Of a DNA stretch of 51,845 nt, positions 23,283-37,920 are shown piece by piece (position 1 is the first letter of the stretch; every line of letters begins with the position of its first letter). The stretch is from Escherichia coli (GTDB taxonomy: Bacteria; Pseudomonadota; Gammaproteobacteria; Enterobacterales; Enterobacteriaceae), in NCBI RefSeq assembly GCF_003334315.1, contig NZ_QOWR01000030.1. One strand, written 5' to 3'. The notes under the pieces are model-generated. The model had not been told where the DNA came from, ran no database searches, and saw only the letters and a list, made by a program, of their open reading frames with translations. A program made the position numbers and the translations under genes.

Positions 23283-24458
23283 ATGCGTCTGTTTTCTATT
23301 CCTCCACCCACGCTACTGGCGGGGTTTCTGGCGGTATTAATTGGCTACGCCAGTTCAGCGGCAATAATCTGGCAAGCAGCGATTGTCGCCGGAGCCACCA
23401 CTGCACAAATCTCTGGCTGGATGACGGCGCTGGGGCTGGCAATGGGCGTCAGTACGCTGACTCTGACATTATGGTATCGCGTACCTGTTCTCACCGCATG
23501 GTCAACGCCTGGCGCGGCTTTGTTGGTCACCGGATTGCAGGGACTAACACTTAACGAAGCCATCGGCGTTTTTATTGTCACCAACGCGCTAATAGTCCTC
23601 TGCGGCATAACGGGACTCTTTGCTCGTCTGATGCGCATTATTCCGCACTCGCTAGCGGCGGCAATGCTTGCCGGGATTTTATTACGCTTTGGTTTACAGG
23701 CGTTTGCCAGTCTGGACGGTCAATTTACGTTGTGTGGAAGTATGTTGCTGGTATGGCTGGCAACCAAGGCCGTTGCGCCGCGCTATGCGGTAATTGCCGC
23801 GATGATTATTGGGATCGTGATCGTCATCGCGCAAGGTGACGTTGTCACAACTGATGTTGTCTTTAAACCCGTTCTCCCCACTTATATTACCCCTGATTTT
23901 TCGTTTGCTCACAGCCTGAGCGTTGCACTCCCCCTTTTTCTGGTGACGATGGCATCGCAAAACGCACCGGGTATCGCAGCAATGAAAGCAGCTGGATATT
24001 CGGCTCCTGTTTCGCCATTAATTGTATTTACTGGATTGCTGGCACTGGTTTTTTCCCCTTTCGGCGTTTATTCCGTCGGTATTGCGGCAATCACCGCGGC
24101 TATTTGCCAAAGCCCGGAAGCGCATCCGGATAAAGATCAACGTTGGCTGGCCGCTGCCGTTGCAGGCATTTTCTATTTGCTCGCAGGTCTGTTTGGTAGT
24201 GTCATTACCGGGATGATGGCTGCCCTGCCCGTAAGTTGGATCCAGATGCTGGCAGGTCTGGCGCTGTTAAGTACCATCGGCGGCAGTTTGTATCAGGCGC
24301 TGCATAATGAGCGTGAGCGAGACGCGGCGGTGGTGGCATTTCTGGTAACGGCAAGTGGATTGACGCTGGTCGGGATTGGTTCTGCGTTTTGGGGATTAAT
24401 TGCCGGAGGCGTTTGTTACGTGGTGTTGAATTTAATCGCTGACAGAAACCGATATTGA
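23283..24458 (+). CDS. ydcO: BenE-family inner membrane transporter, 391 aa
   Basis: ORF 23022..24458 trimmed to ATG at 23283 (MRLFSIPPPTLLAGFL...); multi-TM. Confidence 0.85.
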   Translation: MRLFSIPPPTLLAGFLAVLIGYASSAAIIWQAAIVAGATTAQISGWMTALGLAMGVSTLTLTLWYRVPVLTAWSTPGAALLVTGLQGLTLNEAIGVFIVTNALIVLCGITGLFARLMRIIPHSLAAAMLAGILLRFGLQAFASLDGQFTLCGSMLLVWLATKAVAPRYAVIAAMIIGIVIVIAQGDVVTTDVVFKPVLPTYITPDFSFAHSLSVALPLFLVTMASQNAPGIAAMKAAGYSAPVSPLIVFTGLLALVFSPFGVYSVGIAAITAAICQSPEAHPDKDQRWLAAAVAGIFYLLAGLFGSVITGMMAALPVSWIQMLAGLALLSTIGGSLYQALHNERERDAAVVAFLVTASGLTLVGIGSAFWGLIAGGVCYVVLNLIADRNRY

Positions 24459-24467
24459 CATCCTCCA

Positions 24468-26181
24468 CGCCCTGAAGGACGTGGATCCCTGCTACGTTCA
24501 GGCTGTCGCCTGAATCATTTCGGTGGGTTCCTGCTTCAACGGGCGGCCTGACTGCACCATCTCTCCACAGGCAAGAACGGCGTGCCCCGCCGCTAAAATG
24601 TTGCGAGCGCCATTTACATCGGCGTTCGCTGTATATCCACATACCTGGCATCTGAATTTACTTTGTGACAGGCGGTTCTCTTTCGCTGTATGACCACAGT
24701 ACGCGCAACGCTGGCTTGTATACGCTGGCGGAACAGCAAGCACCTGACCGCCACGCCAGAGCTGCTTGTACGCAAGCTGGCGGCGCATTTCATACCAGCC
24801 CTGATCCAGTATCGAACGGTTTAAACCTGATTTTGCCCGGACATTGCGCCCCGGCTGGCTGACCGTACCCGCTGCTGACTTTGACATGTTGCTGACCTTC
24901 AAATCCTCAATGACTATCATTGCGTGGTTTTTGCTGACGGCCGTTGTGACTTTGTGAAGGTAGTCCCTGCGGATATTTGCGATACAGGAATGCAGTCGCT
25001 GTATTTTGCGTTTCTGCTTTTGCCAGTTGTTGCTGAATTTGACCTTGCGGCTTAACTGTCGCTGAAGTCTCGCCAGCTTCTTCTGGTTTTTCTGAAAACT
25101 GTTTACAGGCTCAAAGACTGTGCCATCTGACAGCGTGGCGAGTTTAGCCACGCCAGCATCCAGCCCGACCATTGATGCTGAAGGGTGAACCGGAGTTGAT
25201 ACTTCACTTTCTGTCTGAATACTGATGTACCACTTACCGCAGGACTGGCTGACAGTGACATTTTTCACAACACCCGTGACCTGACGGCTGTTCCGGTAGC
25301 GCATCCAGCCCAGTTTCGGCAGAAAAATACGGCTGTTTTCCTGATCGAGCTTAACGCCCTGCGGGTAGCGGAATGCATCATTCTGTCCCCGCTTTTTGAA
25401 TCGGGGAAAAGCAGCCCGCTTCCGGAAGAAGTTTTTGTAAGCCCGCTCAAGGTCTTTCAGTGACTGTTGCAATGGCTGTGAGGGAGAATCTTTAAGCCAT
25501 TGCGTTTCAGTGGCATTTTTCCACTCAACCAGCCAGGAAGCCATTTTCCCGTAAGGGATGTATTTATTACCGGCCTCATGATTCTCATTCTGACGTGCCA
25601 GAGCACGATTGAAAACGAAACGACATGCGCCTGCGAAGCGCCTCATTTCACACTCCTGTTGACCACCTGGTCTTAACTGGAATTTAAATGCCTGTAATCG
25701 TTTCACAGGTCAAATGATACTTTGGTCTGTGAAAAAAGAAACCGATATCCGGCGTGGAAGGCATTGTGTTTTCCTGATGCATGTTCACCTGCTCTTTGTC
25801 ACCAGATACCGACGCCAGATTTTTGACCATGACGCGACAGAAAAACTACGCACTTACTTTTCAAATGTATGTGCTGATTTTGAAGCTGAACTGGTTGAAA
25901 TGGATGGCGAACCAGATCACGTCCATTTGTTAATTAACTATCCTCCCAAACTGGCGATATCCAGTCTGGTAAACAGCCTCAAAGGCGTATCGGGTAGGTG
26001 ACTGCGACGAGATCGACCAGATATTGCAGTCAGGTATTACTACAAAGGCGTTTTGTGGAGTCCTGGCTATTTTGCCAGTAGCTGCGGAGGTGCGCCAATA
26101 TCCGTCATTCGCCAATACATTGAACAACAGCAAACACCTGGTCAGGTGGAAAACCGCGCCTTATATCCCCGCCCTGAAGGA
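24468..26181. mobile_element. IS609 (IS200/IS605 family) insertion sequence, divergent tnpB and tnpA
   Basis: TnpB and Y1-transposase ORFs back to back; bracketed by a 12-bp direct repeat cgccctgaagga at 24468..24479 and 26170..26181; exact ends not determined. Confidence 0.65.
24498..25706 (-). CDS. insQ: IS609 TnpB (OrfB, RuvC-like nuclease with zinc finger), 402 aa from GTG (382 aa from internal ATG)
   Basis: ORF track; N-terminal QAFKFQLRP...CRFVFN motif; RuvC-I GLDAGV, RuvC-II VIEDL, zinc finger CAYCGH...CQVCGY, Ruv[13 protein letters not shown]. Confidence 0.85.
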
Positions 26182-26220
26182 TGGGGTTTTACGGCGCACC
26201 GGATAAAAAGCGCCATCTAA
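25714..26220 (+). pseudogene. insP: IS609 tnpA (IS200-type Y1 HuH transposase) interrupted by an in-frame TGA
   Basis: ORF 25714..26001 carries the HuH motif (PDHVHLLINYPP) and stops at TGA 25999..26001; the same frame continues ...LRRDRPDIAVRYYYKGVLWSPGYFASSCGGAPISVIRQYIEQQ... to TAA at 26218..26220, so the catalytic-Tyr region lies after the stop. Confidence 0.6.
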
Positions 26221-26229
26221 CGATGGCGC
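26203..26229 (-). terminator. rho-independent terminator of ydcL
   Basis: Hairpin gcgccatc-taac-gatggcgc followed, on the minus-strand transcript, by a U-run (plus-strand ataaaaa). Confidence 0.5.
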
Positions 26230-36893: not shown

Positions 36894-37182
36894 TACCGTT
36901 GTCTCTCGTCCAGGTTTACTCCTGATAGAAAGTCATCGGCACTTGACGGTAATTACTTACGACTAAAAGCCTCTTTGCGTCACATTTTTACAACAATTAT
37001 TGCAGAGAAGGTTAATGCCATTGGAATGAAGAGAGTAACGAATGATTAAACGGGCTAACCCGAATGACGAAAAATTCTGGAAAACAGCACGCAATTTCGT
37101 GAAGTGATTATTTTCGTCCCTAAGGAAACCTCATAGGATGCCTGCGGGTGCCTGAGACTTTCTGTTTTCAGGCTAACCGGGA

Positions 37183-37233
37183 ATCAGAAAGACGAAGGCC
37201 CCGACCGATATTTCTATCAACCGAGGCCAACGA

Positions 37234-37250
<17 letters not shown>
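37183..37250 (-). ncRNA. sokB: SokB antisense RNA of the hokB/mokB type I toxin-antitoxin locus (approximate)
   Basis: Minus-strand terminator hairpin (GGCCUCGG...UCGGGGCC then U-run) complementary to the mokB start region; extent inferred from hok/sok architecture. Confidence 0.4.
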
Positions 37251-37441
<191 letters not shown>

Positions 37442-37856: not shown

Positions 37857-37920
37857 CTTCCGATGTAGACCCGTATTCTTCGCCTGTACCACGGGTCGGT
37901 TTTAGTACAGGCGTTTTCTT
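37857..37920 (+). ncRNA. rydC: Hfq-dependent small RNA RydC
   Basis: cttccgatgtagacccgtattcttcgcctgtaccacgggtcggttttagtacaggcgttttctt matches my recollection of RydC, including the terminal hairpin and U-run; sits between ydcA and cybB. Confidence 0.7.

Follow-up and report, generated by a model that had tools for sequence, protein, structure and literature searches.

The transposase of the locus described here can be compared with that of IS608, and its nuclease with that of ISDra2. IS608 TnpA (PDB 2a6m, 2vjv) aligns with the TnpA of our locus over the HUH motif and the Y...Q helix (E = 6e-19), and IS608 and IS609 both have hairpins in subterminal position and integrate on the 3' side of a short, fixed sequence with no target duplication; in contrast to IS608, however, the TnpA encoded here is truncated at residue 95, ahead of the catalytic tyrosine. 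The ISDra2 TnpB-omega-RNA complex (PDB 8exa, 8h1j) has the same domain order as our TnpB, a guide-RNA scaffold that spans the 3' end of tnpB together with the right end, and a 5-nt TAM at the left end. The ISDra2 TAM is TTGAT; here, by contrast, tnpA and tnpB are divergent and the predicted TAM is TTTAT. In TldR, a nuclease-dead domesticated TnpB, a TnpB relative is likewise kept without a working TnpA (PMC10705468). We considered the TnpB of our locus, InsQ, as a TldR and rejected this, because its RuvC residues are intact and its gene lies inside a complete insertion sequence with both ends.

Two further IS609 copies serve as direct references. The IS609 of E. coli K-12 occupies the same locus, with the same TGA in tnpA and the same InsQ length of 402 residues, and is 99.8% identical over a query of 2101 nt. 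Four single-base differences from K-12 in 1861 nt (positions 24768, 25668, 26029 and 26109, the third being V106F in the dead TnpA frame) mean that our DNA comes from a close relative of K-12 and not from K-12 itself. The second reference is a copy with an uninterrupted tnpA, found near ytfB in strain 32F4 (TnpA WP_000604912.1, 143 residues), which has the same ends, TTTAT flank and layout at 97.8% identity. In the 32F4 copy, unlike ours, codon 96 reads TTA, codon 144 reads TAG and LE position 26182 is C, and its TnpB is two residues longer than our InsQ, with 12 substitutions.

RefSeq and published work already record that this is an IS609 element with a broken transposase and that InsQ is a TnpB. 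RefSeq describes the K-12 tnpA as 'IS200/IS605 family transposase, internal stop' and the adjoining gene as 'insQ: RNA-guided endonuclease InsQ/TnpB family protein'. Umenhoffer et al. noted a stop codon in the IS609 transposase gene (yncK) of K-12/MDS42 and no transposition (PMC2891674), and in the mutation-accumulation lines of Lee et al. (2016) IS609 made 0 transpositions, against 758 events of other IS elements (PMC5009759). The original prediction for this DNA is right in substance and wrong in several details. The practical value of the present analysis is that it corrects the anatomy of the element, giving its precise ends, TTTAT as the TAM, the position of the scaffold and a predicted guide, all of which an interference assay of the native K-12 nuclease would need.

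Identity and boundaries of the element

The window (the whole stretch of DNA that was analysed, 51,845 nucleotides) is E. coli chromosome with the gene order sutR-ydcO-(insertion)-ydcL-tehB-tehA. The insertion is a non-autonomous copy of IS609, a member of the IS200/IS605 family with divergent tnpA and tnpB. Its outline is as follows:

24455..26202, minus strand: IS609 element, 1748 bp, ordered left end (LE), tnpA (antisense), tnpB, right end (RE); defined by comparison with an empty site
24455..24497, minus strand: RE, with a hairpin at 24464-24485 and the terminal motif GGAGGATGTCAA at 24455-24466
26146..26202, minus strand: LE, with a hairpin at 26166-26186 in direct orientation relative to the RE hairpin
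26203..26207, minus strand: target and predicted TAM TTTAT (ATAAA on the plus strand), flanking LE in the tail of the ydcL terminator T-tract

These ends replace the span of 24468..26220 proposed originally. In strain EC488 the ydcO-ydcL site is empty, and the base at 24454 is joined straight to that at 26203, with 0 duplicated or ambiguous bases. The right boundary is further fixed by the invariant motif GGAGGATGTCAA, which occurs a single time in the window and is found, mostly exactly and with at most two mismatches, in 69 related loci of other species, whose flanks diverge directly beyond it. In copies at other loci, the match to the window likewise begins at 24454/24455. The name IS609 comes from a copy, 97.8% identical across 1753 nt, to whose TnpA RefSeq gives the label 'IS200/IS605-like element IS609 family transposase'.

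As is characteristic of the IS200/IS605 family, the ends are without terminal inverted repeats and have similar subterminal hairpins on the same strand, seen as a direct repeat (24464-24484 and 26166-26186, 86% identical) each copy of which is self-complementary, and the element is inserted 3' of a fixed pentanucleotide beside LE without target-site duplication. The RE hairpin covaries in an alignment of relatives, and the start of LE is conserved among relatives. At position 26182 in LE, 19/19 copies from this locus have T, which weakens the stem, and four copies from elsewhere have C. The insertion point lies 3' of TTTAT within the T-tract of the ydcL terminator (a hairpin at 26210-26229, then TTTTTAT). 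At the other side the ydcO stop codon is now supplied by IS609, and ydcO terminates inside the right end.

The transposase and nuclease genes

The two genes of the element have start codons 7 bp apart and are read in opposite directions:

25714..26145, plus strand: tnpA pseudogene (Y1/HUH transposase), with the HUH motif at H69/H71 and the catalytic Y135 and Q139 downstream of the stop
25999..26001, plus strand: premature TGA at codon 96, which is TTA (Leu) in copies with an uninterrupted tnpA
24498..25706, minus strand: tnpB/insQ, an uninterrupted ORF of 402 residues with a GTG start
25158-25160, 24906-24908 and 24618-24620, minus strand: codons of the InsQ RuvC residues D183, E267 and D363, from alignment to ISDra2 TnpB

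The tnpA frame opens with the ATG at 25714, includes the HUH motif (H69-V70-H71 in PDHVHLLINYPP) and meets the in-frame TGA, which ends the product at residue 95; past the TGA it stays open as far as 26220. The core of the original description holds at the coordinates given there. The stop had, however, been ascribed to a change of an arginine codon, CGA to TGA, whereas the actual change is TTA (Leu96) to TGA; Arg95 precedes the stop and is retained. Codon 96 is TTA both in the IS609 copy with an uninterrupted tnpA and in 14/19 copies at the locus (position 26000 is T in 14/19 and G in 5/19), and solved TnpA homologues have Leu or Ile at the position of residue 96.

The catalytic tyrosine also needed to be relocated. 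It had been placed in YYYKGVLW but is rather Y135 in IRQYIEQQ, which aligns with Y127 of IS608 TnpA, and the metal-site glutamine Q139 aligns with Q131 of the same protein (PDB 2a6m alignment). Since Y135 too is downstream of the stop, the conclusion that the element is transposition-dead is unaffected by the misplaced tyrosine: the truncated product lacks Y135, and this agrees with the transposase stop and absence of transposition published for K-12/MDS42 (PMC2891674). With the stop repaired in silico, TnpA is a clear match to NCBIfam NF033573 (transpos_IS200), at 143.3 bits where the cutoff is 55, as a Y1 HUH TnpA of this family would be. The stop codon of the 143-residue reference TnpA (TAG, 26143..26145) is CAG in the window. 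We dropped this CAG at codon 144 as a sign of decay specific to the locus, as it is common to copies at three other loci and thus a subtype polymorphism.

InsQ is an apparently intact TnpB. The motifs GLDAGV, VIEDL, CAYCGH, CQVCGY and ADVNGARNI, reported as intact in the original prediction, are all present in the 402-residue ORF. Residues 3-376 align with ISDra2 TnpB (8bf8/8exa, phmmer; E = 2e-54) with the D/E/D residues matched, and residues 7-372 score 379.8 bits against NCBIfam NF040570 (guided_TnpB; cutoff 100). The RuvC D-E-D triad is complete, as is the CxxC...CxxC zinc finger (C334/C337 and C353/C356). We looked for inactivating substitutions that might have been missed and found none in a comparison with 75 homologues; at the positions where 80% or more of these share a residue, InsQ differs only twice, by R19C, which is lineage-specific (Arg in 89% of homologues), and by I257V, which also occurs in the reference copy with an uninterrupted tnpA. 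The two-residue-shorter TnpB, which results from a TGA, was also dropped as decay specific to the locus, copies at three other loci having the same. From these features we infer that InsQ would be a programmable nuclease. In the literature we found nothing specific on whether native InsQ is active in E. coli or how selection acts on it. In one scan of E. coli from wastewater, insQ figures among the genes that contain positively selected sites, and an IS609-class TnpB has been purified in one published study.

Predicted omega-RNA, guide and target

Downstream of the InsQ catalytic codons we predict two further features:

24455..24598, minus strand: predicted omega-RNA scaffold, covering the final ~100 nt of tnpB together with all of the right end
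24435..24454, minus strand: predicted guide, 5'-TATCGGTTTCTGTCAGCGAT-3', in flanking DNA antisense to the last ydcO codons, placed by the mechanism of TnpB

For the RNA alignment we collected 80 loci encoding TnpB relatives 58-94% identical, from contigs representing one genome per species, and aligned their terminal 200 nt, as far as the right end. RNAalifold on these relatives predicted 20 pairs, and compensatory changes are seen in 11. Pairing on the scaffold structure holds in 95.4% of cells, versus 82.3% when shuffled and 46-69% when partners are slid, and double-change cells number 155 versus 52 expected. A well-supported helix (24592-24588 / 24582-24578) falls within the coding sequence, which suggests that structure matters at the RNA level, beyond any DNA hairpin used by TnpA. 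A covariance model for which 63 non-Escherichia sequences were taken, with the window left out, has its sole match in the 51.8-kb window at 24455..24598 (minus strand), full length, with 154 bits (E = 2e-39), a score to which primary-sequence conservation contributes much. These results bear out the original expectation of an omega-RNA at the tnpB 3' end, in the form of a predicted conserved and covarying scaffold, and a structured scaffold reaching from the 3' part of tnpB across the right end is what the TnpB family would lead one to expect. In its E-value mode, Rfam gave leads at 24445-24571 (minus strand) to HgcC (22.2 bits), sot0042 (15.5 bits) and RAGATH-18 (25.4 bits). We rejected membership in these families, because the scores are below the gathering thresholds (50, 88 and 44.9, respectively) and the hits are absent from the gathering-mode scan, which returned sok and RydC only in the window.

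The guide had been expected to derive from 24460..24650. That stretch is instead the predicted scaffold (24455..24598), and the guide would be the ydcO 3' flank at 24435..24454. TTTAT flanks LE at four E. coli loci, that of the window included. In other species the LE flank is TTTAT in seven cases, TTTAC in three and CTTAC in one, TTTAY being usual. In the empty allele, TTTAT is followed directly by TATCGGTTTCTGTCAGCG, a perfect TAM and predicted target. In the window, no target with a TAM is present; the guide sequence matches at the RE junction alone, which has GTCAA where a TAM would be. A 12-nt repeat, AGAAACCGATAT, shared by the guide region and tnpA codons 8-12, was considered as a self-target and set aside, as it is without a TAM and probably due to chance.

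Copies across E. coli and readings of the locus

To see how the two genes fare in the population, we compared 19 copies at ydcO-ydcL, namely the window and 18 genomes spread over the identity ranking. In this small sample of 19 genomes, with kinship ignored in the pN/pS and lesion statistics, we obtained:

tnpA, 429 nt: intact in 1/19 copies; 6 disrupting lesions; 5 synonymous and 18 non-synonymous variants; pN/pS 1.07
tnpB, 1206 nt: intact in 16/19 copies; 3 disrupting lesions; 25 synonymous and 29 non-synonymous variants; pN/pS 0.33

The tnpA ratio fits neutrality, and tnpB has an excess of synonymous variants (p <= 0.006 at transition/transversion ratios of 1 to 6); 6/9 disrupting lesions are in tnpA, though it makes up 26% of the combined length (p = 0.013). 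The first tnpA stop is caused by L96* in five copies, a 5-bp deletion in six, a 1-bp deletion in four, Y76* in two (one of which also has ATG changed to ATT in tnpA) and E62* in one. These tnpA lesions are common to clades, whereas the tnpB lesions are three different nonsense changes, each a singleton. The scaffold and right end have only four variable positions among the first 13 copies compared. As Y76* also occurs in an IS609 copy at another locus, gene conversion from mobile copies is plausible and could inflate the constraint signal. Divergence of flank and of element, compared with a view to vertical co-inheritance, correlates only weakly (rho 0.22, over pairs that are not independent). 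The pattern of variants and lesions suggests that tnpB is retained at a fixed site while tnpA drifts neutrally, and it falls short of proving a function.

The 4308 genomes with at least 80% query coverage are not a measure of locus occupancy, since the element alone is 83% of the query; as a rough estimate of occupancy, 22/40 rows of an evenly spaced ranking span both flanks. Many genomes have further IS609 copies (a median of three matching places), and these could supply TnpA in trans.

We consider it likely that the locus is a non-autonomous IS609 with a dead TnpA, an intact tnpB/insQ and a predicted omega-RNA, whose predicted nuclease would be idle unless an empty allele appears. The TTA to TGA change in the K-12-like lineage truncates TnpA at residue 95 and removes Y135, leaving a copy unable to excise or transpose alone. 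By the published mechanism of TnpB, the guide TATCGGTTTCTGTCAGCG... would be part of any transcript that extends from the 3' part of tnpB across the right end and beyond it, and TnpB loaded with this guide would cut TTTAT followed by the guide sequence, which is the empty ydcO-ydcL allele. In the homing model, a lost element is regained by recombination once TnpB has cut the site it left (Meers et al., 10.1101/2023.03.14.532601; PMC10690162). If the only IS609 copy in a cell has a dead TnpA, such a target would never arise and the nuclease would be idle; it would act only on an empty allele met via recombination, or with TnpA from another IS609 acting in trans. For the K-12 line, a single IS609 copy is reported (PMC5009759).

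The whole element might instead be a decaying relic, in which TnpB and the RNA are nonfunctional too and an obvious lesion has merely not yet been acquired. We think this unlikely, though several observations lean towards it: tnpB carries nonsense changes in 3/19 copies at the locus, InsQ of the window has R19C at a conserved Arg, a tnpB pN/pS of 0.33 is weaker constraint than that of typical core genes, a promoter scan found no convincing tnpB promoter, and a dead TnpA in a single-copy background (PMC5009759) would leave the nuclease without a target in the cell. The population data, however, argue against it, as non-synonymous and disrupting changes in tnpB are significantly below the neutral expectation that the adjacent tnpA fits, all tnpB nonsense alleles are singletons where the tnpA lesions are shared by clades, and the scaffold and right end are nearly invariant. 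It is hardly credible that TnpA is made after all, whether because the TGA arose in assembly or because of readthrough. The sole point in favour is the frame that stays open past the TGA, and against it stand the 'internal stop' of the K-12 annotation and the lack of reported transposition. The exact 71-nt stretch with the TGA is present in 1687/5003 matching complete-genome records, K-12 included, so that it is not a sequencing error.

Co-option of insQ and the RNA by the host, be it for guarding the occupied allele, for regulation of ydcO by the antisense guide or for defence, seems to us distinctly improbable. It would fit the constraint on tnpB after repeated, different losses of tnpA at one fixed chromosomal site, and also the guide region being antisense to the ydcO stop region, with ydcO ending within the right end. 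The catalytic residues are intact, however, unlike those of the nuclease-dead TldR regulators (PMC10705468), the element keeps ordinary IS ends, and its guide is fixed merely by the landing site; many E. coli are without the insertion, and some carry tnpB nonsense alleles. Moreover, in many genomes TnpA could be supplied by other IS609 copies, so that selection at the level of the element suffices for the constraint.

Going beyond the non-autonomous element with an idle predicted nuclease, which is the reading we prefer, one may tentatively propose that insQ and the omega-RNA at ydcO-ydcL are selectively maintained throughout E. coli despite repeated TnpA loss, the nuclease cutting incoming empty DNA (TTTAT followed by TATCGGTTTCTG...) and thereby shielding the occupied allele against recombinational replacement; this is possible, but we regard it as doubtful. 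If it is true, a model organism would harbour in insQ a gene-drive-like relic that stays in place and is independent of transposase. The population pattern itself is a small, testable addition, and it bears on why tnpB genes often outlast transposases.

Host sequences at the insertion point

Insertion of IS609 (24455-26202) altered the C-terminus of ydcO (window 24450-24458). In the empty allele, that is, ydcO-ydcL without IS609, ydcO ends in ...NR-TAA, and this stop codon straddles the later insertion point, whereas in the window allele ydcO ends in ...NRY-TGA, the stop codon being provided by the right end of IS609. The element has also cut off ydcO from the hairpin terminator at 26210-26229, which was formerly common to ydcO and the convergent ydcL.

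The predicted guide region in the flank shares a sequence with tnpA. AGAAACCGATAT is an exact 12-nt direct repeat, found at 24444-24455 (predicted guide and flank) and at 25737-25748 (tnpA codons 8-12). The repeat is probably due to chance, because the copy within tnpA has no TTTAT TAM ahead of it.

Elsewhere in the window there are matches to two RNA families:
37146-37297, sok antitoxin RNA, Rfam gathering-level match
37857-37920, RydC sRNA, Rfam gathering-level match
The sok match is the hokB/sokB locus in K-12. Both are ordinary K-12-type features with no relation to the IS609 finding.

Related copies in other genomes

The sole match 100% identical to our 2101-nt query from the window among complete-genome records came from a pig isolate (NZ_CP053720.1), where an IS3-family insertion interrupts the region and divides the match into two pieces. 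Strain GN03507 carries an IS609 fragment between yedF and ybcM. Of its tnpB a remnant of 291 nt survives, with the annotation of a helix-turn-helix pseudogene, while its tnpA is given in the annotation as intact, encoding a protein of 179 aa (WP_032143406.1). The ydcO locus shows the reverse pattern. An enterobacterial-type IS609-like tnpB, whose protein is 82% identical, stands alone on a 2057-bp contig of Streptomyces mutabilis JCM 4400, and looks like contamination of the Streptomyces assembly rather than a genuine Streptomyces element.

The tnpA frame and the left end

The divergent start codons of tnpB (GTG, 25706) and tnpA (ATG, 25714) are separated by 7 bp, so the promoter of each gene necessarily lies within the coding sequence of the other. 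A consensus scan revealed no convincing promoter for either gene.

At 26143-26145 the copy in the window has CAG, as do copies at three other loci (L103, L104 and L105), in place of the TAG that ends the 143-aa reference TnpA. The tnpA frame therefore continues across the left end into flanking DNA, and RefSeq labels the CAG-bearing copies 'missing C-terminus'. Position 26182, in the left-end hairpin, is T in every one of the 19 ydcO-ydcL copies (the window and 18 genomes) and C in four copies elsewhere; the T, which is also present in two copies from other species (L016 and L017), adds one mismatch to the hairpin stem. This variant on its own could impair recognition of the left end by TnpA.

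Another premature stop in tnpA occurs among the related copies:
25941, Y76* of tnpA (TAT to TAA), listed for L103 (near nrdR), L011, L097 and the group with a 5-bp deletion
Copies at ydcO and one copy at a different locus share this identical change, which suggests either that IS609 copies have undergone gene conversion with one another or that the mutation has recurred.
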